DNA of 64,000 bases from Candidatus Babeliales bacterium (lineage in GTDB: Bacteria; Babelota; Babeliae; Babelales; UASB340). This document shows, one piece after another, positions 4,530-22,640 of the stretch. Under the pieces are notes generated by a model. It did not search any database and had not been told where the DNA came from. It saw only the letters and a program-made list of their open reading frames with translations. The position numbers were made by a program, and so were the translations under genes. The stretch's first letter is position 1. Each line of letters begins with the position of its first letter. The stretch is taken from NCBI GenBank assembly GCA_023133515.1, contig JAGLWI010000005.1, positions 70,548 to 134,547 of the forward strand, written 5' to 3'.

Positions 4530-4615
4530 TTTTTCATCAAGATTATAATAATTCAGTTTTCTGCTATAATATAACAATTGATATAAAATAATATTACCAA
4601 AATAAAGGAAACTGC

Positions 4616-4897
4616 ATGATTCAATTTGACAAAGAAGAATTATTAAAAATTGCAAATCTTGCAGCTTTAAAACTAAATGAAAAAGAGGTTGCTGAATTTC
4701 TAAAACAAATTCAGCTTGTTTTAGATTATACAAAAGAATTAGACCAAGTTAAACTTGCAAAAGAGGTTGCTCCAATAAAAAACGTTAATGTTTTTCGACA
4801 AGATAAGGCAATACTAAAAGATTCTTCAGATCTTCTATCCCTAGCACCACGAACACAAGATTCATATTTTGTAGTTCCTAAGATATTAAAAAATTAA
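4616..4897 (+). CDS. gatC: Asp/Glu-tRNA amidotransferase subunit C
   Basis: 93 aa with GatC-like N-terminus (LKIANLAALKLNEKEVAEF). AAGGA Shine-Dalgarno upstream. Lies directly upstream of gatA. Confidence 0.8.
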   Translation: MIQFDKEELLKIANLAALKLNEKEVAEFLKQIQLVLDYTKELDQVKLAKEVAPIKNVNVFRQDKAILKDSSDLLSLAPRTQDSYFVVPKILKN

Positions 4898-4956
4898 TAC
4901 TTTCAAAAAATAAATAATTATATAAAAAAACTTTGAGAATATAAGGATTAAAACTT

Positions 4957-6402
4957 ATGAAACCTTTTTTAACAATAAAAGAGTTAAAAAAAAAATTAAT
5001 CAAAAAAGAGTTAAGTATAAAAGAGGTTATAAAGTTTTATACTGATAGATTAAAAAAATTCGAAAAAAAATTACAATCTACTTTAGAAATTTTTGAAGTA
5101 GAACTCCCAAATACAGAAACATATGACCAAAACAAAGCCCTCTTCTCAATTCCAGGATTATTAAAAGACAATATTTGTCAAAAAGGGAAAATCGTATCAT
5201 GCGGATCTAAAATATTGGCAAATTACAAAGCCCCATATGATGCTACTGTTGTTCAACAACTTAAAGAACAAGGTGCTATAATTTTAGGTAGAGCTAATAT
5301 GGACGAATTTGCCATGGGAAGCTCCGGTGAATATTCTGCATATAAAATTACACTTAATCCTTGGAATACAAATCTTGTTCCAGGTGGTTCTAGTGCTGGA
5401 TCTGCTGCCGCTGTTGCGGCAGGACTTGTTCCATGGGCACTAGGTTCTGAGACTGGAGGATCTGTTCGTCAACCAGCAGCTTTTTGTGGATTAGTTGGAC
5501 TTTATCCTACTTACGGAACAAACTCAAGATATGGTTTAGTCGCATTTACTTCATCTACAGATCAGATAGCTCCGTTAACAAAAACAGTTTACGATAATGC
5601 ACTAATTTCTACTGTGCTTTCTGGTAATGATCCAAAAGATACAACTTCTCTTTTTAGAAAAAAAGTTGACTATACTAAAAACCTAAGTAAAAAGTTTCCA
5701 CAAAATTTAACTTTAGGTGTAATACAAGATTCTATTGAATCAGAAGGAGTAGATGATCAAATAAAACAAACTTTTAAAAATGCAATAGATCATTTAGAAA
5801 AACTTGGAGCAAAAATTAAATATATTAACCTTCCTGATTTAAAATATGGAATATCAATTTATTTTATTATTAGCAGAGCTGAAGCAGCATCCAACCTTTC
5901 ACGTTTTGATGGATCTTTATATGGAATGAGAGTAGATCAATCAAAAGGATTAAAAGAAATGTATATCAATACAAGACATGATGGCTTTGGTATAGAGGTA
6001 AAAAGAAGATTGTTAATGGGAAATTACGTTCTTTCAGCAAGCCATAAAGAAGCATTTTATAACAAAGCAGATCATATTAGAGCAATGCTAAGGGCAGAAT
6101 TTGAAGATGCATTTACGCAAGTAGATCTACTTGTAAGTCCAACTACACCAACATTGCCTTTTCAAATAGGTAAGATGTGTCAAGATCCACTTGCAATGTA
6201 CATGGCAGATTATTTTACAGTTCCAAACTGCATAACTGGAAACCCCGCACTTTCTATTCCATGTGGATTTTCAAAAGAGAATCTACCAATTGGATTTCAA
6301 TTCATAGGCCCAAGATTATCAGAAGAACTGATATATCAAGTTGCATACGCTTATGAACAAAGTACAGATTACCATTTAAAACACCCTGTTGGATTTGAAT
6401 AA
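4957..6402 (+). CDS. gatA: Asp/Glu-tRNA amidotransferase subunit A
   Basis: 481 aa. Amidase signature GGSSAGSAAAVAAG and GSETGGSVRQPAAFCG. Confidence 0.9.
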   Translation: MKPFLTIKELKKKLIKKELSIKEVIKFYTDRLKKFEKKLQSTLEIFEVELPNTETYDQNKALFSIPGLLKDNICQKGKIVSCGSKILANYKAPYDATVVQQLKEQGAIILGRANMDEFAMGSSGEYSAYKITLNPWNTNLVPGGSSAGSAAAVAAGLVPWALGSETGGSVRQPAAFCGLVGLYPTYGTNSRYGLVAFTSSTDQIAPLTKTVYDNALISTVLSGNDPKDTTSLFRKKVDYTKNLSKKFPQNLTLGVIQDSIESEGVDDQIKQTFKNAIDHLEKLGAKIKYINLPDLKYGISIYFIISRAEAASNLSRFDGSLYGMRVDQSKGLKEMYINTRHDGFGIEVKRRLLMGNYVLSASHKEAFYNKADHIRAMLRAEFEDAFTQVDLLVSPTTPTLPFQIGKMCQDPLAMYMADYFTVPNCITGNPALSIPCGFSKENLPIGFQFIGPRLSEELIYQVAYAYEQSTDYHLKHPVGFE

Positions 6403-6417
6403 AAATTATAAAATAAA

Positions 6418-7266
6418 ATGAATCCAAAAAATGGATTTAAAAAAAAATTAACAAAAAAATGGAAAAGAAAAATTATATTAACAATAACAATAATCCTACT
6501 TTTCTTTTTCATTTTAAATCGCATCTTTTTTTTCAAAAAAAGTTTTCTTGAAAACTTCGCAGGCAATTTAATATATCCAGTAATATTCGTATCAAGTAAT
6601 ATCAAATGTTTTGCTAACCATTTTTTTCAAAAAAGAAAAAATTATAAAGAACTTGAAAAAAAATATAAAATTTTAAAAACAGAAAAAGAAAAATTGCTTA
6701 AGCAAAATATCAAATTGAAAGCAAGTTTACACTACAATTCACTTACTAAAGATATTTTAGATTTTCAAAAAAGATACGATCTAAAAACAGCAATGTTATC
6801 AAAAATACTTGTAAAAAACTTTACATCACAAGAACATTATTTTTTAATAAACAAAGGAAGTAAAGATGGAATTCAAAAAAATATGTTGGGTATATATAAA
6901 TTTCAAATAGTTGGAAAAATAGTTGATGTTTTTAGATGGTACAGTAAAATGGTTTTAATCACGGACAAAAATTGTAAAGTAGCTGCTTTTACAAACAAAA
7001 CAAATGCCCAAGGAATTGTAATTGGACAAAATATAAAAAATCAACTTAAAATGGATTATGTAAATCATCTTTCTTCTATGGAAAAAGACGATTTTGTAAT
7101 ATCAAGCGGCCATGGATTAATATTTCCAGAAGGATTTTGTTTAGGAAAAATAAAAGATTATAAAACTGAAGGAGTTTACCACAAAATAACAGTTGAACCT
7201 TTAGTAGATTTTTCAACACTCAAATTCTGTTTGTTGATAAATCAAGAAAAAATTACCTCTTTCTAG
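6418..7266 (+). CDS. mreC: rod shape-determining protein MreC
   Basis: 282 aa. N-terminal TM anchor, coiled-coil ([21 protein letters not shown]), then a beta-rich C-terminal domain ([13 protein letters not shown]...GIVIG). Confidence 0.6.
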
Positions 7267-7308: not shown

Positions 7309-7385
7309 GCGCCTGTAGCTCAATTGGATAGAGTAGCGGACTTCGAATCCGAAGGTTGCAGGTTCGAGTCCTGCCAGGCGCACCA
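7309..7385 (+). tRNA. tRNA-Arg (anticodon TCG)
   Basis: Hand-folded 77-nt cloverleaf: acceptor GCGCCTG/CAGGCGC, anticodon loop CTTCGAA, T-arm GCAGG-TTCGAGT-CCTGC, encoded CCA. Confidence 0.9.
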
Positions 7386-7534: not shown

Positions 7535-7611
7535 GTGCCTATAGCTCAGGTGGATAGAGCGAACGATTCCTAATCGTTAGGTCGCAGGTTCGAGTCCTGC
7601 TAGGCACACCA
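7535..7611 (+). tRNA. tRNA-Arg (anticodon CCT)
   Basis: 77-nt cloverleaf: acceptor GTGCCTA/TAGGCAC, anticodon loop TTCCTAA, the same T-arm as the other Arg tRNAs, encoded CCA. Confidence 0.9.
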
Positions 7612-7733
7612 GCTTTCGCCAAGGCTTACGCCGTCGCATAAAGCTATGGCGCACAGGTCAGCTGGCACGGCCAGCCTTCGCCAAGGCTTCCGTCTTCACA
7701 TAAAACTTCAACAAACAAAACCTGGCAAGCAAA
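7612..7733. repeat. two tandem units of the GC-rich hairpin repeat (family 1)
   Basis: GCTTTCGCCAAGGCTT-ACGCC-GTCGCATAAAGCTA-TGGCG-CACAGGTCAGCTGGCACGGCCA, then a second, AT-decayed unit GCCTTCGCCAAGGCTTCCGTCTTCACATAAAACTTC...CCTGGCAAGC. Confidence 0.75.
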
Positions 7734-7891
7734 CTAACTACCTTAAAATTCAAATAGAACAAATTATAATTTTCTAAATAAATTTCTTCTCTACAAGTAA
7801 AAAACTACCCCCATTTTTCTTTCATATAAACCAAGAGTAAAATAATAGTAAGGCTAAGGTTATTTGAAAAATATCTAAAATATGGGGGGAT
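7734..7891 (+). promoter_or_regulatory. conserved 5' leader/promoter region of secreted module, copy A
   Basis: Roughly 90% identical by eye to 15802-15960. Contains TATAAT (about 7775-7780), C5 (7808-7812) complementary to the G6 run/SD (7884-7889), and AATATGGGGGGATATG at the start site. Confidence 0.6.
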
Positions 7892-8665
7892 ATGAAAATG
7901 AAAAAAATAGTATTTTCAATTATATTGCTATCATTGGTTTCTCTGGGGTTTGTGAAATGTAAAAAGAGTAATGATCTTGCCCAGCAATCACTTGACGCAC
8001 TTGCATTAAAGGTGGCAGAATTGGAGGGTATGCTCAAAAAAATAGAAAACGAAAAGAGTAAAAGTTCAGATAAGAGAGTTTCTTCAGACCTTATCAATCA
8101 GGTTCTTAATAACGCAAAATATGTATCACAATTTCTTTTTGATCAGTTTAAATTTTTTATGGATAAAGGAGATAAGGTTATTTCTAAAAAGTTTTTCATA
8201 GGAGTAATGTTTCTTATTGGGCCTCTTTTGTTGCTTGAAAATAAAGTGCTTGGACTTGGCATGACAAGTGCCATTATAAAAAAGATCACAGGAATTTTTG
8301 TACATGGAGGAAAGGAAGTAGCAAAAGACGTTGTTGATGTGGTAGTTGATGAAGTCAAATCGGATCTCTGGTTTGTTGCAAAGTTAGGGGGAATTTGGGT
8401 TGGTATTAAAGCAGCAGGATCTTTTGCGTCTTCGTTAGCGACGAAGATCGGGGGCAATGCTGGTGAAATTTTGACCAAACATTCCACATTAAGTAAATTA
8501 TCTGCAACAACAGGAGCTGTTATTGCTGCTGTTACGGCTCCAAAAGCACTGGTTGTTACTGTTCCATTATTTTTATTGCACAGATATTATTCTCATAATC
8601 ATGTAATCCCAAATTGGCAGGAAGCGTACCAGGATTTTGGACTTAATTATATTTTTGGATCTTAA
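7892..8665 (+). CDS. orphan signal-anchored protein, module gene 1 (copy A)
   Basis: 257 aa. Hydrophobic N-terminus MKMKKIVFSIILLSLVSLGFVKC, coiled-coil segment, and Gly/Ala-rich hydrophobic C-terminal half (GGIWVGIKAAGSFASSLATKIGG). Paralog of 15961..16623. The true start may be the second ATG at 7898. Confidence 0.6.
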   Translation: MKMKKIVFSIILLSLVSLGFVKCKKSNDLAQQSLDALALKVAELEGMLKKIENEKSKSSDKRVSSDLINQVLNNAKYVSQFLFDQFKFFMDKGDKVISKKFFIGVMFLIGPLLLLENKVLGLGMTSAIIKKITGIFVHGGKEVAKDVVDVVVDEVKSDLWFVAKLGGIWVGIKAAGSFASSLATKIGGNAGEILTKHSTLSKLSATTGAVIAAVTAPKALVVTVPLFLLHRYYSHNHVIPNWQEAYQDFGLNYIFGS

Positions 8666-8772
8666 GAAAGCCTTGCTATTGTTGATGTACTTTTCTAAAT
8701 TGTACCTTACTATATAATATAGTTTGTAATAATATGTTTTTTAGTTTTTTAAAAGTACAAGGAAATTAAAGC

Positions 8773-9381
8773 ATGGAAAAACATATTTTGAAAGTGCTTA
8801 TGTTTGTCATTTTTAGTATGGTGTTTACTGTCAATCAATATCCACAAGATTTTCAATATCAGGATTTATCTTTTAAAAATATGATCTCTAAAGATTTAAA
8901 TTTTTTCTATTTTTATAAAACACACTTATACAAAGCAGATTTTCGATTTTCAGATTGTTACAAAACAGATTTTCGATGTGCTGATATGAGATATACTAAT
9001 TTCCGTTTTGCAAAATTACATGGAGCTAAATTACAGAAAGCAAATTTGCATGGGGCTGATTTTACTCAGGCGGATTTGGAGAACGCAGATTTAACAGGAG
9101 CGAAAATTGAAGGGATTATTGTAGGAGAGTATACCAATTTAGATGGAGTTAAGGGAATTCCAAAAGAAATATTAGACAAGCTAAAACAAACCATAAAAGA
9201 GAAGACTGTTCTTGCTGAAGAGGAGGAACGTAGACAGATAGAGTTTATCAAAAGCATTCCTGATAGGATCTTTTATTATCCAGAAAAAATTGTTTCTTTT
9301 TTGATTTCTGTTCCAAAACATGTTGCTTTAAAAATCATCGATCGGTTTTATTCTAAACAAGAAATTGTGGAAGAGTCTTGA
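8773..9381 (+). CDS. pentapeptide-repeat protein with signal-like N-terminus, module gene 2 (copy A)
   Basis: 202 aa. Repeats such as ADFRF SDCYK TDFRC ADMRY TNFRF AKLHG AKLQK ANLHG ADFTQ ADLEN ADLTG. Hydrophobic N-terminus. C-terminal motif VSFLISVPKHV is shared with copy B. Confidence 0.8.
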   Translation: MEKHILKVLMFVIFSMVFTVNQYPQDFQYQDLSFKNMISKDLNFFYFYKTHLYKADFRFSDCYKTDFRCADMRYTNFRFAKLHGAKLQKANLHGADFTQADLENADLTGAKIEGIIVGEYTNLDGVKGIPKEILDKLKQTIKEKTVLAEEEERRQIEFIKSIPDRIFYYPEKIVSFLISVPKHVALKIIDRFYSKQEIVEES

Positions 9382-9540
9382 ATAAAAATCAATTTAATTT
9401 TTCTGATCTTAATTTTTAGTATCTTTATCTTATTCTTAGAAACATTGAAACCATTTAAAAAAAATGTTAAAAAACGTTGGGTATCTTAAAAAAAGTTCAA
9501 TCAAGTTTAACAAACAAATAAAAAGAGGGAGATTCTATTT

Positions 9541-10977
9541 ATGAAACAAATATTTCGCCTATTATTTTTAGTTGTATCAATATTTTGTACTTTCAAAACA
9601 AGATGTTGTAATGAAAATATAAACTGTGGTAAATCAAAACTATATTCAGCTGCGAACAAGGGAGAATTTGAGCGTTTAAAATATTTAATTGAAGAAAAAA
9701 ATATAGATTCTAAAAGTTGTCCACTGTTATTACATTGTGTTTGTAATAGTAGTGAAGGAAATTTAGATATTGTTAAATATCTCATTGAAGAACAAGGTTT
9801 TGATCTAAATTTTGATCCTCCAAAAAGATGTTTTTATTGGTTATTTGGTCATTGTTGTATTGAATATTATAATGCTCCATTATTTTATGCATTTAAAAAA
9901 GGAAATGTTGATATAGTAAAATATCTTTTATCTAAGTTAAGGTTCCCTAAAGAATTTACCGAAACTGAATCGCAGATAACAAAAGAAAAAATTATACAAT
10001 TTACACCAAAAAATAAAATAGCAGAAAGAATTATATGCTTTTGCCAAAAAGAAGAAATAGAAAAATTAGATAAATTCCTTAAGAAACAAAAAATAAACTT
10101 AAAAATTTTTACAGAACAATATAATGATGAAATCATGAAATATATTCATATACGTAACATAAAGAGAAATTCTGACAATTTTAACTTGGATAATTTAGAA
10201 TATATTTACCCATTAGAAATAGCATTTAAATTACGATCTATAGATTTATTGAAATATCTTATTGAGGAATGCAAGCTTGATTTTACAAACACAAGACATG
10301 AAAATATTTTTTATAACTTTTTTGAAAATGCATATCATGACGATTTAGATTATAAAATATTAGATTGCACTAAATATCTTATTGAAGAATGCAAAATTGA
10401 TCCAAATATAAAGGGTTCTAATGGTGAAACTCTTTTGCACTATGTATGCCAATTTTGTTGCTGTAAAAAAAATTTAGAGGTAATTGATTATTTGATAAAA
10501 AAAGGAATAGATCCAAACATCCAAAATGAAAATGGGGATACGCCTTTACATATAGCGATAACATATAACAATATGGAAGTTATGAAACACTTAATTGAAA
10601 AGCATAATGTTGATCTAAATATAAAATCTAATGATGGAGAGACTCCTATTTTACAAATTCAAACTTCGGAGGTTCCTTTAGAAATTGTTGATTATCTTAT
10701 AAAAAAAGGTGCTGATCCAACAGTGCAAGATAAGTATGGAGTAAATATTTTACATTGTGCTTGTTGGTATGGTCGTTTAGATATAGTTAAATATCTTATA
10801 GAAATATGTAATATGGATCCATGTGTACCTCAAAAAGATGGTCGTACGGTATTGGATATTACAAAAGAATTGGCTTATAATACAAACTTTGATCGTTGGA
10901 TTCATAAAAATAAAGAAAAGTTTGAAAAGTTCAAAGTAGAGTGTTTAAAAATAATTGAGTATTTAGAGCGACTTTAA
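9541..10977 (+). CDS. ankyrin-repeat protein with signal-like N-terminus, module gene 3 (copy A)
   Basis: 478 aa. Multiple ANK units (GETLLHYVC, GDTPLHIAI, GETPILQ, NILHCACWYGRLDIVKYLIE). N-terminus MKQIFRLLFLVVSIFCTF. Confidence 0.85.
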   Translation: MKQIFRLLFLVVSIFCTFKTRCCNENINCGKSKLYSAANKGEFERLKYLIEEKNIDSKSCPLLLHCVCNSSEGNLDIVKYLIEEQGFDLNFDPPKRCFYWLFGHCCIEYYNAPLFYAFKKGNVDIVKYLLSKLRFPKEFTETESQITKEKIIQFTPKNKIAERIICFCQKEEIEKLDKFLKKQKINLKIFTEQYNDEIMKYIHIRNIKRNSDNFNLDNLEYIYPLEIAFKLRSIDLLKYLIEECKLDFTNTRHENIFYNFFENAYHDDLDYKILDCTKYLIEECKIDPNIKGSNGETLLHYVCQFCCCKKNLEVIDYLIKKGIDPNIQNENGDTPLHIAITYNNMEVMKHLIEKHNVDLNIKSNDGETPILQIQTSEVPLEIVDYLIKKGADPTVQDKYGVNILHCACWYGRLDIVKYLIEICNMDPCVPQKDGRTVLDITKELAYNTNFDRWIHKNKEKFEKFKVECLKIIEYLERL

Positions 10978-11176
10978 GAATTAAGGACCATTACATCGTG
11001 GACATAATATTATTATTAATTAAATCATAATTTAACGTTAAATCGAAATTAAATTATCTAATAAATGGCTTGTATTAATGTAAGACATTTATTAGAAATC
11101 AACAAGTTGCTCTCTTCCCGTAAAAACACTTTTTTTATCCCATAACTAATGATTGAATATCAAATAGTCTTAGACA

Positions 11177-11217
11177 TTCAAAAGAAAAGTTGCGGAAATA
11201 GTCCGATAAGGTACATT
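11177..11217 (+). promoter_or_regulatory. conserved promoter-like motif (copy 1)
   Basis: TTCAAAAGAAAAGTTGCGGAAATAGTCCGATAAGGTACATT is near-identical to 20264-20304. Reads as TTGCGG-N16-TACATT on the + strand. Confidence 0.35.
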
Positions 11218-11243
11218 TTTTCAACTTCTTAATATCATTAAAT

Positions 11244-12587
11244 TTAAATACTTTTTACATGTTTAAACTTATCTTTAAATTCTATAAGCTCAATAGGTGC
11301 CCCATTATGAATTATCATTGCTGATCTAACTCCGCCAGAAGGAGATCCTGGTTCAAGCAAAATCTCTTTGCCTTTGAGCGCCTCATCAAGATTATCAACC
11401 TCAAAAGCAACATGTGGCACCTTTCTCACAATGTCAGGTACCGTACAATCTTTTTCAAATCGCATCCACTCGATGCCATATGGACTTGTCTCAAAGCCAG
11501 ATACATATACCTTCAAGTGTTCATAATGCGTTTCCCCTGGTCTTGGTTCTGTGTATGGTATTCCAAGATGATGGTAATGCCAACCACGCTCAGCAATCAC
11601 AGCAGGAGGCTCATGTTTTAATCTTTTATGGGTTAATCGATCTTTAGGTGTTTCGGTTTTATTTTTAGGCATGTTTTCATTCTTAACTTCAATCAACTTT
11701 TCTGCTGTTTCATGCAACGTGGAGTGTCGTTCTGTTTTATACTCAAAAAACATCCAGTGTTCTGGATTTTGCTTAAAATAAGGCTCTTGAATTGGATTAT
11801 AATCCTGTGTAAACCCCCAAGCGACATAAGCCTTTTGTGCAATTTCATTTGTTATGCGAGTAGAAAGAAAAATACGCTTACACTTCTCCGGTACAATTTT
11901 TAAAATTGAACTCATAAGCAATTTTCCTAACCCACGATTTTGTTCAGATGGGACAATGGCAAAACTTGGAGATTTAATATCACCAAATGAATATGCTGGG
12001 GTAATAAAGAATTCTATAAATCCAAGCAATGCTTTTGTTTCTCCATCTTTGACTGTTACAAAAAAATGTAGATCTGGACTACTACCAAACTTTGAATAAT
12101 CCATGATATAGATCTGCTTAAGAACCAAAGGCATCATTGCTTCGACTTTTGGCCAATCTTTCGTTTTAAGTGCATTTTTAAAACCATACCATTCAGCTTC
12201 TTGGGAACTATCTTTAAAAATAGCTTCAAACGGTTTGCAATATTCATCGTATGTTTTTTGGTCTGAATGTGCTTTCAAAAATGCCACTTCTACTGGGATG
12301 TAGGCAGCGCATGCTATTTCACAAAAACTTTTCATGGTTTCTGAAAAGTCTGGTGATTGCAATGTTAACTTCTTCCATTCCAAAATAACTGGTCTATCAA
12401 ATTTATCTTTTGCTAGAAATGTACCTGATGGCCTTGATTCGGTTATTGTATTAACTTGCTTTAACCATGTAGATGTTTTTTGTGCATCGTTTTTATTATT
12501 CATTTTTTTCCTTACAATAAAATAGACACCTACGACAAGGACAAAAAACGTGACAAACCCGATTTGTTTAACAAACTTCATACTCAA
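11244..12587 (-). CDS. membrane-anchored GNAT acetyltransferase fused to a VOC/glyoxalase-like domain
   Basis: 447 aa. N-terminal TM (IGFVTFFVLVVGVYFIV). GNAT core with QNRGLGKLLM (Q/R-x-x-G-x-G/A) and AYVAWGF. C-terminal HHLGIP...VPHVAFEVDNLDEALKG...IELIEF resembles VOC-family beta-alpha-beta-beta-beta modules. The gene is visibly GC-richer than its neighbours. Confidence 0.6.
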   Translation of the reverse strand: MSMKFVKQIGFVTFFVLVVGVYFIVRKKMNNKNDAQKTSTWLKQVNTITESRPSGTFLAKDKFDRPVILEWKKLTLQSPDFSETMKSFCEIACAAYIPVEVAFLKAHSDQKTYDEYCKPFEAIFKDSSQEAEWYGFKNALKTKDWPKVEAMMPLVLKQIYIMDYSKFGSSPDLHFFVTVKDGETKALLGFIEFFITPAYSFGDIKSPSFAIVPSEQNRGLGKLLMSSILKIVPEKCKRIFLSTRITNEIAQKAYVAWGFTQDYNPIQEPYFKQNPEHWMFFEYKTERHSTLHETAEKLIEVKNENMPKNKTETPKDRLTHKRLKHEPPAVIAERGWHYHHLGIPYTEPRPGETHYEHLKVYVSGFETSPYGIEWMRFEKDCTVPDIVRKVPHVAFEVDNLDEALKGKEILLEPGSPSGGVRSAMIIHNGAPIELIEFKDKFKHVKSI

Positions 12588-12996
12588 TATCTCCTATCAT
12601 AATTTTAGTACCTTCAATTTCTTTAGTTAAACAAACGGTTATTAAAAAGATACCCATAAAAAAGCATAAATCAAATGTTCTGCTATAAGCATATAACATT
12701 GTAAATCCTTACATTTATACAGAACACTATCATGCCCCATAAAATATAAACCAATTTTTTCATGATAAACTTTTTTTCAATTTTTTTATCAACACAATTG
12801 ATACTTAATCCAAAAAGTTATTACACCTAGATTAACAAATTTAAATCTCTCTAAATAATTTTTATTCCATTACTATAAAAAAATTGATGTTGGCACAGTA
12901 ATTAGAAAATTAAAACAATGAACGAAAAACGGTCTGAATACTCTGAAAGCTAAAACCAAACTTTATAGAATTATTCCTGAATGCGTCAAGTAAGAA

Positions 12997-13070
12997 ACGC
13001 CATACTTCGCTAAAGCTTCGTATGGCACGGCCATCCTTCTTCCGCTCATGCTAAGCTTGTCAAAGCACAG
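12997..13070. repeat. GC-rich hairpin repeat (family 1 variant), left direct repeat
   Basis: ACGCCATACTTCGCTAAAGCTTCGTATGGCACGGCCATCCTTCTTCC matches 14334-14380 at 46 of 47 positions. It is followed by a decayed GCTCATGCTAAGCTTGTCAAAGCAC segment. Confidence 0.8.
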
Positions 13071-13147
13071 ATTGCACACAATAGAAAAGCCCCAACATGC
13101 AAAACGTTAGGGCTAAAAAACTGAAATCTTTTTGAAAAATAACCTTT

Positions 13148-13252
13148 CTATTGCATAAAGTCCTTTATTTTTTTTGTCATAGGCTTAAGAAGCAATAGAT
13201 AAATTAATATGATAAGAGAATATCCAATTAAAGAATGCATTAACTGATTCAT
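13148..13252 (-). CDS. possible small hydrophobic peptide (34 aa)
   Basis: Hand translation gives MNQLMHSLIGYSLIILIYLLLLKPMTKKIKDFMQ*. Below the ORF-track cutoff, with a weak RBS. Lies just downstream of the glycine-zipper gene on the same strand. Confidence 0.2.
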   Translation of the reverse strand: MNQLMHSLIGYSLIILIYLLLLKPMTKKIKDFMQ

Positions 13253-13377
13253 TTTTGTTTCTCATCAAAAAATAAATATTTAACAAGTTCTATAATTATA
13301 TGAGTTAAACAGCCTAATACTACTAGTTCATACCAATACCACATTATATAATCCAATCAAAATATATCCAATCAAAA

Positions 13378-14088
13378 TCAAATTGGACCTGTAGCTACTC
13401 CTCCTGCAATTCCTCCTGCTAATGCCATTGCAGTGGTAGTAGCTTCTATTGGTGCAGCCAATGTTGTTTCTAATGACATAACTACTAGTGCTCCAGCAGC
13501 CGGTGTGGCAACTATACTTACTACACCACCTATTGCCAAAATTGCACCATGACAAACCGCAGACGAAACAAACTTCCCAATCCAAGCACCACCAATAGCA
13601 CCCCATACACCACCACCAGAAAGCCTTACATTAAAACATAATGTATACTCTCCATTACTCTTTTGTTCGATTTTTATATAGGCACTTTCTGATAATTTTT
13701 CAAGAATTCTATTTGATTTATGTTTTTCAAGTTTAGAAATATCTTTAGTGTCAACATGCCTGATAATTTTCTCAACTTTTTCTGGAGAAACTTTTACCAT
13801 TATGACTTTTTGACCATCAATTTCTATCTCTTTTACATTTCCCAGCACTTTTTGTAGTTCTTCTGTAGAAATGTTTGATATCGCTTTGTCTACAAAACAA
13901 TTTTGAACGGTATGTAATATTCCATCATGTTTAACATAGAAAGTCTCGTCACCATGATATAATGCTATATCTCCCAAACCTCTAGAAGCACTCACATTAA
14001 ACTTGTTAATTTCAACCAATTTTGCAGAACATGTACCTAAAGAAAAAACTAAAGCTAAGGGAAAAAATACTTTTTTAAATATTTTCAT
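13378..14088 (-). CDS. secreted protein with C-terminal Gly/Ala-rich (glycine-zipper-like) hydrophobic domain
   Basis: 236 aa. Signal-like MKIFKKVFFPLALVFSLGTCSA. C-terminal about 85 aa GGGVWGAIGGAWIGKFVSS...AGGIAGGVATGPI. Confidence 0.6.
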   Translation of the reverse strand: MKIFKKVFFPLALVFSLGTCSAKLVEINKFNVSASRGLGDIALYHGDETFYVKHDGILHTVQNCFVDKAISNISTEELQKVLGNVKEIEIDGQKVIMVKVSPEKVEKIIRHVDTKDISKLEKHKSNRILEKLSESAYIKIEQKSNGEYTLCFNVRLSGGGVWGAIGGAWIGKFVSSAVCHGAILAIGGVVSIVATPAAGALVVMSLETTLAAPIEATTTAMALAGGIAGGVATGPI

Positions 14089-14333
14089 TACATCTTTCGT
14101 ATGCTTAATAACAATTTACTATCTAAAATCTGTTGATTATAAAAATTATAATATTACATAGTTGCTCCTCTTTTTTTTGTAAAAATAAACCGATGTACAA
14201 AAAAAACAATTTCATAACAGATTTTATAGATTTCAACCAAATACACAATAGAAATCTAAACAAAAAGCATTTGCTTAATATGATTTATTTGAATCACTTC
14301 AAAAGAAAAAGTTCTAAAATAATCCCAACAGGT

Positions 14334-14380
14334 ACGCCATACTTCGCTAAAGCTTCGCATGGCACGGCCATCCTTCTTCC
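14334..14380. repeat. GC-rich hairpin repeat (family 1 variant), right direct repeat
   Basis: ACGCCATACTTCGCTAAAGCTTCGCATGGCACGGCCATCCTTCTTCC, in the same orientation as 12997-13043. Confidence 0.8.
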
Positions 14381-14512
14381 ACACTCATCTCGAGAATACT
14401 ATCTTATGGTAATATTGATTATAAGTATTGCATTAGCAACTTGAATCTAGACCTTTAATTGTTATGATTAACAAAAAATTTGATAAAAGCAGAAATAGGA
14501 CAAATAAAAAAA

Positions 14513-14612
14513 GAAGGTAAAAAGTGGCTCTCTAAATACTTACGTATCTTTGAGCCGGTTAAACATTCAGCGATTTCTCGCTGAGCGCATCACACTACCT
14601 CTCCTTACCTTC
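14513..14612. ncRNA. candidate small structured RNA or further GC-rich element
   Basis: Closing stem GAAGGTAA(14513-14520)/TTACCTTC(14605-14612) encloses hairpins GGCTC...GAGCC (14526-14556) and CAGCGA-TTTC-TCGCTG (14568-14583). GC-richer than the flanks. No known RNA family recognised. Confidence 0.2.
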
Positions 14613-15123
14613 AAAATTAATTATATCAAATAGTAAATAATAAATGCAATGGTTTGGCAAAAAAAGTTCTAAATAAACTAGATATCCTTAAGTCCTAAAG
14701 TCCTAAAAACATCATTTCCTACAAGCTTTTTCGTTAATTTTTAGCTCAAAAAATGGCACAATTAAAACAATAAAACTATTTTGAAAAACACTGGAATAAA
14801 TTGCGACAATATGTCAAAACAAAAAACAATGTTTGCAATCTCACAGCTAAAAATAAAAAAGGATATTTTAATGAAGAACAATACACAATCTATTAAGTCT
14901 AACACCACAATAAAAAAGAAAAATAAAATACTAATCAATGTAAATATACAAAAAACAAACTATAGGCTATTTCTTTCTCGCTATCAATGCTATACTTATG
15001 GTTGTATATGTTATTGCTGTAGCTTTAATTTTTGATTATTCCGGATTAGGTTCTTCAAAAAAACAAAAAGTTTCGGTAATAATGATTGTAATTTTTAACC
15101 CTTTTTTATAGGAAAATTGATTT

Positions 15124-15381
15124 ATGGAAAAGCTCTATGTCGGCAACTTACCTTCTACAGCAACACAAGAAAGCGTTGAAGCTTTATTTTCTCAATATGG
15201 ACCAATTGAGAGTGTTGTACTTATCAAAGACCGAGAAACAGGCCTTTTTAAGGGATTTGGTTTTGTTGAATTCCAATCTAAAGAAGATGCTAACAAAGCG
15301 TTGGAATTAAATGGAAAAGATTTTGAAGGTCAACAACTCAAAGTAAACGTTGCTCGCCCTAAAAATCCAAATAGATACTAA
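15124..15381 (+). CDS. RRM-type RNA-binding protein
   Basis: 85 aa. RNP-2 LYVGNL and RNP-1 KGFGFVEF motifs. Confidence 0.85.
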   Translation: MEKLYVGNLPSTATQESVEALFSQYGPIESVVLIKDRETGLFKGFGFVEFQSKEDANKALELNGKDFEGQQLKVNVARPKNPNRY

Positions 15382-15405
15382 GAAAACAACATATCGTTTT
15401 TGATA

Positions 15406-15454
15406 TTGTTAAATTCAGTTTAAATAGTGCTACATTTTGAACTGAATTTAACAA
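15406..15454 (+). terminator. hairpin terminator after the RRM gene
   Basis: Perfect 15-bp stem TTGTTAAATTCAGTT / AACTGAATTTAACAA, followed by TTGTTGTTT. Confidence 0.6.
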
Positions 15455-15744
15455 TTGTTGTTTAAACTGGGTATAATTAGAATAACAGAAATTGTTAATG
15501 CATATCTTGTAAGCTTTTTTTGATAAATATCTAAAAAGCAAACTATTGGTTATATCTAACTTGCCTATTCTAACAAGGCTTCAAGTGTAGTTCCTGAGGG
15601 TTTTTAGATATGTCGTTGAACCACTTTCCATGATGCAAACAATGCACTTTTTATGCTAAATTTAGATTCCATTAAAAAAATCAAAAAAAACTTAAGCCTA
15701 AATTAAATTCATATCAAAAATAGAAAAAACGGTTTGTATATCTT

Positions 15745-15960
15745 GCTTTCGCCAAAGATTTCGTCTTCGCATAAAACTTCAACAAACAAAACCTGTCAAG
15801 CAAACTAACTATCCAAAAGTCCAAATAGAACAAATTATAATTTTCTAAATAAACTTCTTCTCTACAAGTAAAACCTACCCCCATTTTTCTTTCATATAAA
15901 CCAAGAGTAGAATAATAGTAAAGCTAAGGTTTATTCGAAAATATCTAAAATATGGGGGAT
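15745..15960 (+). promoter_or_regulatory. decayed family-1 repeat unit plus conserved 5' leader of secreted module, copy B
   Basis: GCTTTCGCCAAAGATTTCGTCTTCGCATAAAACTTC... aligns with 7674-7891 at roughly 90% by eye. TATAAT about 15834-15839, C5 15878-15882, G5 15954-15958. Confidence 0.6.
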
Positions 15961-16623
15961 ATGAAAATGAAAAAAATAGCATTTTCAATCATTTTGTTAT
16001 CATTTGTTTCTTTTGGTTTGATTCAATGTAAAAAAAATCCAATTGTAGCCAAAGACATTTCTCAACAATCTCTTGATGAACTTAAAAATAAAATGTCTGA
16101 ATTGAAAAATATGTTTAAAAAAGCAGAAGCTGAGAAAACAAAAAATCCAACAAAGAAAATTTCTGAAAAAATTCAATATCAAATTCTTGATAAAATAAAA
16201 AATATATCACATTTTCTTTTTGATCAGCTTAAGTTTGTAGCAGATAAAAGTGATAAAATTATTTCTAAAAAGTTTTTTATAGCTGCAATGTTGATAACAG
16301 CACCGGCAGTTTCTCTTTACTGCAAATTTTTTAATCCAAATTTTATTAAAAAGATAATAGAAAAAATTTCTGCTATAATTACGCATAAAGCTGGAGACGC
16401 CGGGGCATCTGCAACTAAGGGCTTCTTTAAGGGAATTGCGGAAATGGTATGGAATAATAAATTAATAACAGCATTGGTTGTTGGAGGATATGTAACGATA
16501 ACGGTTACTACAGGGATTGTAAGTGTTTTAGGTGGAAAAATGTTTGAAGTACTTGGTAGTGAATTAGGGAGTTATGTAGCCAAAAAACTACTGCCCGCAG
16601 TAGTGGAAGCGGCAGCGAAATAG
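15961..16623 (+). CDS. orphan signal-anchored protein, module gene 1 (copy B)
   Basis: The ORF track starts at 15952 (MGDMKMKK). By alignment with copy A the likely start is ATG 15961 (MKMKKIAFSIILLSFVSFGLIQC). Shares FLFDQLKF..DK.DKIISKKFFI with copy A, and the C-terminus diverges. Confidence 0.6.
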   Translation: MKMKKIAFSIILLSFVSFGLIQCKKNPIVAKDISQQSLDELKNKMSELKNMFKKAEAEKTKNPTKKISEKIQYQILDKIKNISHFLFDQLKFVADKSDKIISKKFFIAAMLITAPAVSLYCKFFNPNFIKKIIEKISAIITHKAGDAGASATKGFFKGIAEMVWNNKLITALVVGGYVTITVTTGIVSVLGGKMFEVLGSELGSYVAKKLLPAVVEAAAK

Positions 16624-16639
16624 AAAGGCAAGTGAAAAA

Positions 16640-17215
16640 ATGAAAAAAATATTTTTCATATTTGTTTTGATTATCTATTTATGTGGAGGTTCTGCTTACA
16701 CTTATGATATAAACGCCTTAGAGGAGGCGACGTCTGGATCTAAATATTTACGCTATAGCCATTTATCAGGGGCACCTCTACGCCGGATGTTTTTGTGGCA
16801 TGTTGACTTGTCCCATTCAGATTTATCATATGCTAGGTTGTCTGGGGCAGAATTACCTTATACAGATCTATATCGTGTAAACTTATCTCATGCAGATTTA
16901 TCACATGCGTTGTTGGTAAGAATAAAATTACATGAAACAAAAGTTGAAGGGGCAAACTTCTATGGAGCGATTGGCCTTACAAACGTTAAAAAGAAATATC
17001 TACGAGAACATGGTGCTATAAATGTTCCTGAGGATCGTCCAGAAGAAGAAAAAGAAATGGAAATTGTATTTAAAGCGGGGCCTTGGATTACAGGCCCACT
17101 GAATATTTCAAAAAAAGTATTATCATTTATTTTTCTAACTATTCCCAAACACATCAAAAAACAATTAATTGATAGTTGTTTTTTCGTTAAAAAAATAAAA
17201 GAAAAATCTAAATAA
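16640..17215 (+). CDS. pentapeptide-repeat protein with signal-like N-terminus, module gene 2 (copy B)
   Basis: 191 aa. Repeats VDLSH SDLSY ARLSG AELPY TDLYR VNLSH ADLSH ALLVR. C-terminal LSFIFLTIPKHI. Confidence 0.8.
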   Translation: MKKIFFIFVLIIYLCGGSAYTYDINALEEATSGSKYLRYSHLSGAPLRRMFLWHVDLSHSDLSYARLSGAELPYTDLYRVNLSHADLSHALLVRIKLHETKVEGANFYGAIGLTNVKKKYLREHGAINVPEDRPEEEKEMEIVFKAGPWITGPLNISKKVLSFIFLTIPKHIKKQLIDSCFFVKKIKEKSK

Positions 17216-17343
17216 AAATCAATTATTTTTTAGTATCTTTTTTATATTTACATAGTTTCTATTTTTTTGTACGTTTTAGTAGTTTTAAAAAATTAATTTT
17301 TAAAATATTAAAATTTTTCAATTTCTTAAGAGAAAGGTTAATA

Positions 17344-19029
17344 GTGAAAGTGATAAATCATGTTTTTATCTTTATTTCATTAATTTTATTTTCAACAAAC
17401 ATCTCCTTTACACAAAATTCAACTACCAATTCTACAAAAACATTTGAAGTTTCGAAAGACGATCCCGCTATTATTAAAGCAATAAAACAAAATGACATTG
17501 AAAAACTTAAAGAACTTTTGAATAAAGGAGAAAACGTTAATTGTGTAGATGATGAAGATGGAACTTCTTTGCATTGGGCAATTTATCTGAACAATGAAAA
17601 TGCATTCATTGAAGTTTTAAAACACAATCCTAATATTAACAAAAAAGATAAATACGGTATGACACCATTGCATTGGGCAATAGAAAAAAACAATTTGAAA
17701 ATAACAACAGATCTTTTAATATTTGGAGTAGAAATTGATGAAAAAGATAACAATGGCCACACCCCATTGCATTTAGCCGCAAAACTTAACAGAATAGAAA
17801 TAATAACTAAACTTGTACAATTCGGAGCAAATAAAGAATCTAAAGATAATCATGGCGATTCTCCATTACATTTAGCTATAAAACATAACAAAATAGAAAG
17901 TATTAAAAAACTTGCAGAATTAGGGGCAAACGTTAACTGTGTAGAAGAAAATAACTATACCCCATTGCACCTTGCAGTTAATCTAAATAATGAAAACGCT
18001 ACAGTTGAAATATTAAAATATAAACCAGATATTAATAAACAAGATATTTATGGTCAAACACCGTTACATTTAGCATCAATCGTTAACAATATAAAAGCAA
18101 TAGAAAAACTTGTAACATTAGGAGCAGATATAAATACACAAAATATCTATAGCTGTACACCATTACATGGAGCGGTACAATTCAATAAAATTGAATCAAT
18201 AAAAACACTTATTAAATTTAATGCAAATATAGAAGAAAAAAATAACGAAGGTTGTACAGCATTGCATGTTGCAGTAAAACATAATCATATAGAAGTAATA
18301 TCACTTCTTACAAAATTAGGTGCAAACATTAATTCAAAAGATAACGACGGCTGGACTTCATTGCATTGGACAGTAAATCAAAATAATATCAAACTAACAG
18401 AAAAACTCATTGAATTGGGTACAGATAAAAATTCTAAAAATCTTACTGGTCTCACTGCATTGCATATTGCTATATATAATAACAATTTAGAAATGATAAA
18501 AATTCTTTTAAACCTAAATGTAGAAAAAGAGTCAAAAGATAATGATGGTTGTACACCATTACATTTATCAGCAAAACTTAACAGAAAAGAAGCAATTAAA
18601 CTGCTTATTAAATATGGAACAAATAAAAATGCAAAAGATAATTATGGGGATTCTCCATTACACTTGGCAGCAGAATTTAATAGAGTAGATGCAATAGCAA
18701 CTCTGGTTGAACTTGGTACAAATATAGAGATAAAAAATAATTCTGGTGAAACTCCACTACATATAGCGGTAATAGAAAACAACATAGAAGTAATATCAAC
18801 TCTAGTTGAACTTGGCGCGAATATAGAAGCAAAAGATAAATACGGCTATACATCATTACACTTGGCAGCAAATAAAAATTACTTAGAAATAATAAAAAAT
18901 CTTTTAACATTCGGAGCAAACAAAACAATTAAAAATAATAATGGAGAAACTGCTTTAGATCTATATATCAAAATATCATCCACTTTAGATGAAAAACCAA
19001 ATATCAAAATTGTTAAAATGCTTTCTTAA
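17344..19029 (+). CDS. ankyrin-repeat protein with signal-like N-terminus, module gene 3 (copy B)
   Basis: 561 aa, GTG start. About 15 consecutive ANK units (G.TPLH.A...N....V..L...GA..N). N-terminus MKVINHVFIFISLILFSTNISF. Confidence 0.9.
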   Translation: MKVINHVFIFISLILFSTNISFTQNSTTNSTKTFEVSKDDPAIIKAIKQNDIEKLKELLNKGENVNCVDDEDGTSLHWAIYLNNENAFIEVLKHNPNINKKDKYGMTPLHWAIEKNNLKITTDLLIFGVEIDEKDNNGHTPLHLAAKLNRIEIITKLVQFGANKESKDNHGDSPLHLAIKHNKIESIKKLAELGANVNCVEENNYTPLHLAVNLNNENATVEILKYKPDINKQDIYGQTPLHLASIVNNIKAIEKLVTLGADINTQNIYSCTPLHGAVQFNKIESIKTLIKFNANIEEKNNEGCTALHVAVKHNHIEVISLLTKLGANINSKDNDGWTSLHWTVNQNNIKLTEKLIELGTDKNSKNLTGLTALHIAIYNNNLEMIKILLNLNVEKESKDNDGCTPLHLSAKLNRKEAIKLLIKYGTNKNAKDNYGDSPLHLAAEFNRVDAIATLVELGTNIEIKNNSGETPLHIAVIENNIEVISTLVELGANIEAKDKYGYTSLHLAANKNYLEIIKNLLTFGANKTIKNNNGETALDLYIKISSTLDEKPNIKIVKMLS

Positions 19030-20906: not shown

Positions 20907-21251
20907 TTAATTCGCATGAATTACTCGATTTTTAATCAACGAAAAAAGATATCTCATCGATGAACCAGCTCCTTCTTTTGCAAGTCTAAACCATTTATTT
21001 AGTGGATAAAAAATAAATCTTTTTTTAATACGTTTATCAAGTCGAGCTTTAAAGTCTTCAAACTCTTCTTCCTCATCACAATCTTCTGGAACATTTATAG
21101 CACCATGTTCTCTAAGATACTTTTTTTGGATGTTGGTTAAACCCCAAACCCCTTTAAAATTAGCACCAATTACTATCGTTTTGTTTTTTCCTTCTATTCC
21201 AATTTTACAGAAGAACATAACTGCATCAAGATATTTTTGAATTAGAAACAA
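20907..21251 (-). pseudogene. 5'-truncated pentapeptide-repeat module gene 2 (third copy)
   Basis: GANFKGVWGLTNIQKKYLREHGAINVPEDCDEEEEFEDFKA aligns with GANFYGAIGLTNVKKKYLREHGAINVPEDRPEEEKEMEIVFKA of 16640..17215. The signal peptide and repeat region are missing. The IS256-like element begins about 40 bp beyond its 5' end. Confidence 0.6.
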
Positions 21252-21292: not shown

Positions 21293-22640
21293 TGTAAATA
21301 AAACTGTGTAAACAAAAATAACTATGTTAAACTAATTATACTATTTTATGATTACCCCAATATAGTTATTTACACAGAAAGAACAAATATGAAAAAACAA
21401 CAAAGTTTTAATATATATAATGAATTAAAAAAATGCAAAACAATGGACGATCTCATAGGCAAAAACGGCTTGCTACAAAAGCTTATTGGGAAAATGGTTG
21501 AGAGACTACTTGAGCAAGAAATGGATGAACATCTTGGATATGACAAACATAATAAAAAAGGTTATTTGTCTGGGAACAGTAGAAACGGAAAAACAATCAA
21601 AAAGATTAATTGTTCTTATGGATCTTTGAATGTTTCAGTTCCAAGAGATAGAAATGGAACATTTGATCCCCAACTTATAAAAAAAAGACAAAGAAATATT
21701 AGTTCGTTTGATGAAAAAATTATTTCTTTGTCTGCAAAAGGAATGACAACTCGTAATATTCAAAAGCATGTTTTGGAATTATACGGAGCAAGAATTTCTC
21801 CGACCATGGTTTCTAATATTATACAGAAAGCTGTATTTGCGGCTCAAGAATGGCAATCTAGACCTTTAGACGAAGTTTATCCTATGATTTTTCTTGATGC
21901 AATTCACTACAAAGTTAAGGAAAATGGAAAGATCTTGTCTAAAGCTGCTTACACTTGTCTAGGAATAAATATGGATGGCAAAAAAGAGATTCTAGGTCTA
22001 TGGGTTGGTGGAAACGAAGTGGCAACTTTTTGGTTAAATATTTGTTCAGAATTAAAAAAACGTGGGGTAAAAGACATTTTTATTGCTTGTGTAGATGGAT
22101 TAAAAGGACTTTCACATACTATTAATAAAGTTTTTCCAACAACTCAAATTCAACTTTATATTATTCATTTAATTAAAAATTCTATTAAATATATTCCATA
22201 TAAACAATCTAAGGAATTTATTACTGATCTTAAAAAAATTTATAAAGCTTCTTCTTTGAGTGCTGCGGAAAATAATCTTTTAAATTTTCAGAAAAATTGG
22301 GAATCTTGTTATCCATTGGCTGTGAAATCTTGGATAAAGAGTTGGGAAAATATTAAAATTTTTTTTCAATTTCCAGAAGAAATTAGAAAATTAATTTATA
22401 CAACAAATGTTATAAAATCTTTTCACAAACAATCAGGAAAAGTTACTAAAAATAAAAGTATCTTTCCTTCTGATCAAATATTATTTAAAATGCTTTTTCT
22501 CGCAGTTAGGAATGTTTCCAAAACATGGACTTTGCCTGTTGCAGGATGGAAATATGCTCTATCTCGCTTTGCCATTTTATATGGAAAAAAACTTTAAGTT
22601 GATTGAGAATGCTAATAGTGTTTACACAGTTTACTTTACA
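21293..22640 (+). mobile_element. IS256-family insertion sequence
   Basis: About 1.35 kb. Imperfect terminal inverted repeats TGTAAATAAAACTGTGTAAAC (left) and GTTTACACAGTTTACTTTACA (right), with a 13-bp perfect core. Carries a single transposase ORF. No target-site duplication could be identified. Confidence 0.75.
21389..22597 (+). CDS. IS256/Mutator-family transposase
   Basis: 402 aa. MDEHLGYDKH...GNSRNGKT...VPRDRNGTFDPQLIKKRQR and FLDAIHYKV / ACVDGLKG blocks are typical of the family. The usual QRC.VH..RN block reads IQLYIIHLIKNS, so it may be degenerate. Confidence 0.85.
   Translation: MKKQQSFNIYNELKKCKTMDDLIGKNGLLQKLIGKMVERLLEQEMDEHLGYDKHNKKGYLSGNSRNGKTIKKINCSYGSLNVSVPRDRNGTFDPQLIKKRQRNISSFDEKIISLSAKGMTTRNIQKHVLELYGARISPTMVSNIIQKAVFAAQEWQSRPLDEVYPMIFLDAIHYKVKENGKILSKAAYTCLGINMDGKKEILGLWVGGNEVATFWLNICSELKKRGVKDIFIACVDGLKGLSHTINKVFPTTQIQLYIIHLIKNSIKYIPYKQSKEFITDLKKIYKASSLSAAENNLLNFQKNWESCYPLAVKSWIKSWENIKIFFQFPEEIRKLIYTTNVIKSFHKQSGKVTKNKSIFPSDQILFKMLFLAVRNVSKTWTLPVAGWKYALSRFAILYGKKL

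Follow-up and report, generated by a model that had tools for sequence, protein, structure and literature searches.

Dependentiae (TM6, Babelota) are obligate parasites of protists and occur widely. Approximately half of their proteins bear signal peptides, most of these being ORFans, and to our knowledge almost none of the machinery by which they interact with their hosts has been characterised. Pentapeptide-repeat proteins (PRPs) serve as protective factors in other systems, as in the case of McbG, Qnr and MfpA, and the Inc proteins of chlamydiae, which have a bilobed hydrophobic domain, are type III secreted and have no Sec signal peptide. PRPs that carry an export signal form a class that is already established: YjbI of Caulobacter crescentus is located in the outer membrane, where its C-terminal tail is modelled as embedded (PMC12864828), and the signal-bearing PRPs Rfr32 of Cyanothece and At2g44920 of Arabidopsis reside in the thylakoid lumen (PMC8145042). 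Closer to the organism studied here, the cultivated Babeliales species Chromulinavorax destructans has a signal peptide on 44% of its coding sequences and on 78% of its 98 ankyrin-repeat (ANK) proteins (PMC6561590), and a type II secretion system, including two copies of gspD, belongs to the core of TM6 genomes (PMC4776705). The DNA analysed here is a stretch of 64,000 nt from a Candidatus Babeliales bacterium (assembly GCA_023133515.1, contig JAGLWI010000005.1, positions 70,548 to 134,547), hereafter the window. It contains two copies of a gene pair in which the gene of a predicted membrane protein, named G1, is directly followed by the gene of a PRP, and an ANK gene stands behind each pair.

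A preliminary description of the window had read this arrangement as a duplicated module of three genes (signal-anchored helical protein, PRP and ANK protein) and as a possible host-directed effector system. All six open reading frames (ORFs) that it listed were found in place. Beyond that, the observation was confirmed in part, and the interpretation drawn from it found partial support. The repeated unit is probably a two-gene cassette of G1 and a PRP that is specific to the Dependentiae lineage, occurs in the window as two full copies and one truncated copy, and acts as a Sec-exported module of the envelope or host interface.

The G1 family and its pentapeptide-repeat partner

The two copies of the first gene, G1_A (7892..8665, +) and G1_B (15961..16623, +), encode products with 39% amino acid identity across 198 aa (BLASTP, E 7e-43) and, on sequence grounds, are clearly true paralogues. 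They are most alike over approximately the N-terminal 125 aa and diverge progressively in the Gly/Ala-rich hydrophobic C-termini, much as the preliminary description had it. The corresponding NCBI products are KAT08_02825 (255 aa, 100% identical to G1_A) and KAT08_02855 (218 aa, G1_B), and the starts annotated by NCBI indicate that the real start is probably the second ATG in both genes, at 7898 in G1_A and at 15967 in G1_B. Recovering the relatives of G1 required an exhaustive HMMER profile search, since a word-indexed homologue search with G1_A returned the query alone. The profile search covered 1.84 billion representatives and established a family of 37 representatives at E<=1e-3, 16 of which were found at E<=1e-10. 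All the G1 contigs of known origin are metagenome-assembled genomes of Dependentiae.

Members of the family are ~130-310 aa long, and one core motif is common to those that could be aligned. From N- to C-terminus, the layout consists of a Sec-type N-terminus, a variable helical region, the Lys-rich motif FxFVxDKxDKIxSKKF, a hydrophobic helix and a Gly/Ala-rich amphipathic tail. Most members begin with MKK followed by a hydrophobic run, which in many of them ends in an xFA or xKA type of sequence at positions -3/-1. The hydrophobic helix starts right behind the Lys-rich motif and carries GP...YCKFFxP; the motif pattern matched 31 of the 35 members scanned, and 27 of these have a transmembrane (TM) helix behind it. 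The tail is variable and includes, in some members, an additional hydrophobic segment. Both window copies present the signal-like N-terminus, the motif and the GP...YCKFFxP helix, and G1_A is accordingly laid out as a predicted signal peptide, a helical ectodomain, the motif in the form FxFxxDKxDKxISKKF, the conserved TM helix and a Gly/Ala-rich hydrophobic tail. The family hidden Markov model (HMM) recognises the window copies at E 6e-55 and 6e-65, values that are circular as both sequences sit in the seed alignment.

Membership of gene 1 in a well-characterised family with an unrelated function, which would have spoken against the idea of a functional unit, was not encountered. Pfam gave nothing for G1_A and sub-threshold noise only for G1_B and 35 family members, NCBIfam gave no match for the window copies or for the family profile, and the best hit of the G1 profile among PDB sequences had an E of 0.09, which is not significant. 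G1 is, as delineated by these profile searches, an unannotated protein family that is first defined here. The possibility that G1 is a lipoprotein was rejected: the lipobox [LVI][ASTVI][GAS]C is missing, the corresponding residues being FVKC in G1_A and LIQC in G1_B, with K or Q at position -1, and a Cys at the end of the signal peptide is absent from most members of the family.

The second gene of each cassette, PRP_A (8773..9381, +) and PRP_B (16640..17215, +, beginning 16 nt after G1_B), encodes a protein that matches the Pentapeptide family PF00805 well above its cutoff of 20.2 bits (70.2 bits and E 1e-19 for PRP_A; 50.5 bits and E 1.5e-13 for PRP_B). The two proteins are only 23% identical (E 7e-8), and the C-terminal tail motif that had been quoted as common to them is seen in both. 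A profile of 13 cassette PRPs matches solved PRP structures with E values of up to 2e-43; PRP_A scores E 5e-63 against the cassette-PRP HMM, a circular value since PRP_A is part of that HMM. In most cassette PRPs, the repeats are followed by a cap motif, GLTxEQKxYLRExGAINVPxD, then by an acidic linker and by a short Trp-containing tail that is hydrophobic or basic. PRP_B follows this plan, with a predicted signal peptide, pentapeptide repeats, the post-repeat motif GLTNVKKKYLREHGAINVPED, an acidic linker and a hydrophobic tail. PRP_A, which has a predicted signal peptide and a hydrophobic/amphipathic C-terminal tail, belongs together with the partner PRP of locus L016 to a subtype without the YLRExGAINVP motif. 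The cassette PRPs remain far below the cutoff of every PRP family in NCBIfam, including HetL, the Qnr families (best cassette PRP scores of 16-23 bits against cutoffs of 240-500) and PipB/PipB2 (17-28 bits, E 1e-6 to 3e-3, against cutoffs of 274 and 354). Some PRPs of other loci end in FCC(C/F)xKxKKK, that is, in a Cys-Cys pair with a polybasic stretch (L011 1418-1999 and 2972-3574; L014 1993-2622), and these tails presumably resemble those of effectors that are lipidated by the host, such as CLCCFL in SifA.

A third PRP copy, overlooked in the preliminary description, was identified at 20907..21251 on the minus strand. It comprises the C-terminal half only, is 71% identical to residues 98-138 of PRP_B and matches the PRP HMM at E 4e-17. 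This shortened copy adjoins a transposase of the IS256 family (21389..22597, +; NF033543, E 1.5e-115, 386 bits against a cutoff of 150), and a tblastn search for a G1 remnant near it found none.

The evidence that carries the pairing of both genes came from the genomic context of 17 external loci, in which all ORFs were scored with HMMs for G1, cassette PRPs, ANK repeats and a further family, Y. A profile scan of contigs with an alignment of two sequences found nothing, and a 12-sequence subset gave two genome loci and three metagenome loci. In 13 independent loci (L001-L005, L009, L011-L017), G1 is directly followed by a signal-bearing PRP gene on the same strand, with intergenic gaps of 3-147 nt, although the G1 members of these loci are only ~20-80% identical to the window copies. 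PRP_A, PRP_B and 11 external partners have a basic N-terminus and a hydrophobic stretch of 13-19 residues, as read from the alignment and a hydropathy heuristic. The similarity matrices of G1 and PRP are correlated (Mantel r = 0.60, a value reached in 1 of 5000 permutations), which indicates that both genes have largely been inherited together.

ANK genes do not share in this conservation. None was found behind the cassette in the external loci for which 0.7-5 kb of downstream sequence was at hand (L002, L009, L011, L013, L014, L015). The preliminary description had proposed that the linkage of three protein classes is conserved and that a gene 1 profile should reveal it in related genomes. 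The profile search brought up an adjacent PRP repeatedly and an ANK gene never; the conserved linkage is thereby upheld for the G1-PRP pair, in 13 external Dependentiae loci, whereas, in the loci examined, the triad is not linked anywhere outside the duplication in the window.

In one locus, L011, G1-PRP precedes Y-PRP and an ANK gene is absent. Y represents a second unannotated family, whose members combine a signal and a TM region with a helical domain that carries PEELHKTF...Y, and its genes were located at L006 8844-9560, L006 13123-13767 (-), L010 5882-6598 and L011 2137-2847. Y was considered as a remote homologue of G1 and rejected (hhalign probability 0.8%, E 0.07). Upstream of the G1-Y pair in L006, a 66-kb Dependentiae-like contig, the region 3438-7147 (-) contains two proteins with PT-HINT domains and several ORFans.

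Upstream regions and mosaic structure of the cassettes

At the DNA level, positions 7674-8211 and 15745-16292 of the window are 78% identical over 550 nt. Because this match begins at 7674, the left edge given to the module in the preliminary description coincides exactly with the start of the duplication. The conserved upstream region, a putative promoter/leader, extends over 7674..7891 (+) in cassette A and over 15745..15960 (+) in cassette B. At ~93% identity, these ~215 nt before the two G1 starts are far more alike than the coding sequence, a pattern that suggests either recent gene conversion or a strong constraint on the promoter/leader. The last ~95 nt before the G1 start are conserved in five cassette copies, including a CCCCC tract and a GGGGGG tract that resembles a Shine-Dalgarno sequence (window 7800-7891 and 15870-15960; L016 ~2380-2466; L017 ~2440-2527). 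A structured leader RNA in which pairing of CCCCC with GGGGGG would occlude the Shine-Dalgarno sequence was unsupported (fold z = -0.9), and an Rfam scan of the window returned tRNAs only.

A GC-rich motif of 21 nt, GCYTTCGCCAARGMTTYCGYC, is found at 7612-7632, 7674-7694 and 15745-15765, that is, three times in the window against zero matches expected. These positions correspond to the 3′ end of tRNA-Arg(cct) and to the exact left edge of each cassette copy. In addition, a GC-rich piece of 36 nt (7627-7662) reappears inverted upstream of the G1 genes in L016 and L017. The GC-rich motif may be a small dispersed repeat or a recombination site.

The mosaic pattern of the cassettes was established by comparison of the window with L015. 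Over 14877-16196, which includes an RRM gene and intergenic DNA, the two sequences differ by one mismatch in 1320 nt, and this near-identity indicates the same strain background. From ~16200 on, inside G1_B, the relationship becomes mosaic: identity is ~50% over 16497-16856, a block that spans the G1 C-terminus and the N-terminal half of the PRP, rises to ~92% over 16857-17155, and gives way to unrelated sequence from 17156. L015 carries the copy-B cassette; the genes downstream of it are unrelated to those of the window and include no ANK gene, and a remnant of the 3′ end of a copy-A-type PRP lies downstream of its PRP. A mixed affinity is also observed in L016, whose G1 is nearest to G1_B and whose PRP is nearest to PRP_A. 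The cassette is multi-copy and has a mosaic look, both between paralogues and from one assembly to another; segments appear to be exchanged by recombination between paralogues, and the locus apparently differs between otherwise identical strains.

The surroundings of the cassettes are AT-rich (window GC ~29%) and consist of an ORFan-rich stretch with many signal-like N-termini, flanked by two tRNA-Arg genes (7309-7385 and 7535-7611) and by the IS256-family transposase. One of the ORFs between the cassettes, 13378-14088 (-), encodes a protein of 236 aa that starts with a signal-like segment and ends in a long hydrophobic tail, rich in Gly and Ala, that resembles a glycine zipper. It was considered as a third G1 and rejected, the BLASTP match being confined to the signal region (E 0.012) and the hhalign probability being 0.2; no match to it was found in Pfam or NCBIfam. 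A Gly-rich tail of the same kind is present in the protein encoded at L002 666-1664 (-). Another ORF, 11244-12587 (-), encodes 447 aa, in which a GNAT acetyltransferase domain (PF00583, E 2.5e-10) is combined with a hydrophobic anchor at the N-terminus and an unassigned region of ~150 aa at the C-terminus.

Possible roles of the cassette and the place of the ankyrin genes

All six proteins of the two stretches are signal-like at the N-terminus, as had been noticed before, with a basic start followed by a hydrophobic stretch of 12-19 residues. The premise attached to that observation, that signals on ANK proteins and PRPs are unusual, turned out to be wrong for this lineage (PMC6561590, PMC12864828, PMC8145042). 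The figures for C. destructans, together with the type II secretion system of TM6 genomes, make Sec signals on ANK ‘effectors’ the published norm and no anomaly.

Our best guess is that G1 and the PRP form a Sec-exported pair of the envelope or host interface. We infer that the two are co-transcribed, exported, localised together outside the cytoplasm and cooperate physically, in the following way. Both genes would be transcribed together from the conserved promoter/leader upstream of G1. Sec would export both products, the signal peptide of G1 would be cleaved, and the conserved hydrophobic helix would keep G1 anchored in the cell envelope. The PRP and G1 would act jointly in the periplasm or on the surface, or the PRP would move on through the type II pathway, so that the two proteins together would make a variable envelope or host-interface module. 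Cassettes would multiply and swap segments between paralogues, giving rise to strain-level variation.

There is a modest chance that both proteins leave the bacterium and have their site of action in the host, which they would reach by Sec and type II secretion or inside outer-membrane vesicles. G1 would then be placed in the host or vacuolar membrane in an Inc-like manner and the PRP would be targeted by its tail to host membranes, like PipB/PipB2. Dependentiae are obligate intracellular parasites with core type II secretion, and vesicles of the outer membrane have been reported (PMC4776705, PMC6561590). The cassette is variable between strains and mosaic-looking, as genes for host interaction would be, and its PRPs show the weak matches to PipB/PipB2 mentioned above, far under the cutoffs; the FCC(C/F)xKxKKK tails of some partner PRPs offer a lead. 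However, the G1 helix, with a mean Kyte-Doolittle value of 1.7-2.0 over 19 residues, should stop the transfer of G1 by Sec and hold it in the bacterial inner membrane, the PipB matches reflect generic PRP similarity, and the PRPs of the window have no Cys-rich tail.

A further reading, which we regard as rather improbable, is that the cassette could be a dedicated diversification locus of Dependentiae, in which the variable parts of a multi-copy surface or host-interface pair are reshuffled among paralogues by gene conversion. The shuffled parts could be the C-terminal half of G1, the N-terminal half of the PRP and the PRP tail, and the fixed parts could be the promoter/leader and the 5′ end that encodes the signal peptide; the conserved G1 would be the obligate partner, an anchor or export factor, of the secreted PRP. 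If this were true, the locus would be a source of strain-level variation in host range or evasion, akin to antigenic-variation cassettes.

Several observations weigh against the reading of the G1-PRP pair as a Sec-exported two-gene module. With regard to export, the signal-like N-termini were judged by our own hydropathy heuristic and not by SignalP, and the same heuristic flags 25 of the 53 ORFs of the window. The Lys-rich motif of G1 would be periplasmic, which fits poorly with the positive-inside rule and leaves the topology uncertain. The AlphaFold models of G1 are of low confidence (pLDDT, the predicted local distance difference test, of 38.7 with 2 sequences and 50.7 with 18 sequences), and a Foldseek search of the PDB with the low-confidence model gave a best E of 1.8. 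The prediction places a helical hairpin at residues 35-97 with a pLDDT of ~70 (helical part ~60-80 residues), and the model permits no fold inference past ‘all-helical’. With regard to transcription, promoter and terminator scans showed no enrichment over shuffled sequence, with 76 promoter-like sites against 76.8 expected. Part of the L015 mosaic could have arisen during metagenome assembly, as a chimera of paralogous cassettes. With regard to the pair, a distant G1 subfamily (L006-L008, L010) precedes a Y protein instead of a PRP, so that the G1-PRP pairing is not universal; as Y also stands before a PRP in L011, small membrane proteins and PRPs may pair variously. Finally, the only two ANK ORFs among the ~53 ORFs of the 64-kb window, as detected with our own HMM, both lie directly behind cassettes. 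Such a position is unlikely by chance, and an older duplication of three genes in the lineage could therefore have occurred.

These ANK genes are the basis for the claim that a membrane component, a PRP and an ANK protein were duplicated as one unit and make up a Sec-exported, host-directed effector system, which we consider very unlikely. ANK_A (9541..10977, +) has a signal-like N-terminus and matches Ank_2 with 188 bits; ANK_B (17344..19029, +) has a GTG start, a signal-like N-terminus and at least 11-13 ankyrin repeats, recognised as 13 stretches by the Pfam model Ank with 311 bits (PF00023/PF12796), so that both lie above the Pfam thresholds. Each of them follows its PRP gene on the same strand at a distance of 128-159 nt. 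The order G1-PRP-ANK, continued by genes for proteins of 339 aa and 140 aa, recurs with an identical ANK_B protein in assemblies obtained independently for this organism, namely GCA_030631185.1 and a Logan contig, and the order in the window is therefore no assembly artefact. The spacer after gene 2, described as conserved, proved to be only weakly so, with a local alignment score of 32 that was matched by 41 of 1000 shuffled sequences.

Against a three-gene unit, all 13 external cassettes lack an ANK gene behind them, including that of L015, which matches the window as far as the middle of G1_B. Gene 3 does encode an ANK array in both copies, as had been reported, but the likeness of the two is of a generic kind: by phmmer, ANK_A reaches 147 bits with ANK_B, 211 bits with human ankyrin-1/2 and 168 bits with a designed DARPin. 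Since ANK_A scores higher on human ankyrin and on the DARPin than on ANK_B, there is no sign that the ANK genes are mutual duplicates. Moreover, ANK genes are abundant in Babeliales, 98 being encoded by Chromulinavorax (PMC6561590), and the region is rich in exported proteins. The ANK genes are ordinary neighbours, that is, separate effector-type genes with Sec signals that stand beside the cassette only in this genome. Ankyrin-like repeats were also noticed in L002, where the gene at 5260-6156 (-), convergent to the cassette, encodes the Fic-like motif HPFDNGNCR followed by such repeats at the C-terminus.

It is most improbable that the cassette is a toxin/immunity-like or holin-like pair, with G1 as a membrane-active pore or release factor and the PRP as its inhibitor or cargo: the Gly/Ala-rich amphipathic or hydrophobic helices behind the G1 TM helix, the tight linkage with gaps down to 3 nt, the multi-copy and variable nature of the cassette and the presence of protective PRPs (McbG, Qnr, MfpA) among the PDB matches would suit such a pair, but the cassette PRP has a predicted signal peptide, unlike known immunity PRPs, which guard DNA gyrase in the cytoplasm, G1 with its predicted cleavable signal peptide and long helical ectodomain is unlike holins, and no PADLOC-type, toxin or holin match in Pfam/NCBIfam and no lytic enzyme gene nearby were found.

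Comparison with known systems

The statement of the preliminary description that no system of this composition was known holds, in that the arrangement was not found described in the searchable literature; the Dependentiae literature surveyed yielded no mention of pentapeptide repeats. As a pair that is found phylum-wide, G1-PRP provides a concrete handle on the dark secretome of Dependentiae, and G1, as a new protein family, predicts a partner for the secreted PRPs, a class whose biology is barely explored. The cassette does not amount to a novel type of secretion or effector system, and there is nothing unusual in the ankyrin component of the earlier claim.

In architecture, the cassette PRPs resemble the YjbI-type secreted PRPs in having a PF00805 quadrilateral β-helix, a C-terminal tail and, as predicted from the signal-like N-terminus, a secretion signal and a place outside the cytoplasm, away from gyrase. 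They differ in that the Cys pairs flanking the YjbI helix (PMC12864828) are not conserved in the 13 aligned cassette PRPs. Rfr32 and At2g44920 are likewise small and signal-bearing, capping helices follow their repeats, and the structures 2f3l, 2g0y and 3n90 are among the PDB matches of the cassette profile; this is generic PRP similarity only, and Rfr32 and At2g44920 belong to another lineage and compartment and have no G1-like partner. With PipB and PipB2 of the Salmonella SPI-2 system, the likeness lies in a PRP domain within a host-directed protein of an intracellular bacterium, whose tail decides targeting. Contrary to the cassette PRPs, PipB and PipB2 are type III substrates without a Sec signal, and the scores of the cassette PRPs rule out membership in these families. 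The gyrase-protecting Qnr, MfpA and McbG are cytoplasmic, whereas the cassette PRPs carry signal-like N-termini.

For G1, the nearest analogy is provided by the chlamydial Inc proteins, which are also small, fast-evolving and lineage-restricted membrane proteins of an intracellular bacterium, with hydrophobic helices and no homologues that can be detected outside the lineage. G1 differs from them by its predicted, cleavable signal peptide and its single conserved TM helix, and there is no sequence relationship between the two. ANK_A and ANK_B are ordinary members of the class of signal-peptide ANK proteins known from the Babeliales Chromulinavorax and Babela massiliensis (PMC6561590, PMC4776705). 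In conclusion, secreted PRPs and signal-bearing ANK proteins are already known from other systems, and what is new in this locus is the G1 family and its pairing with a PRP.

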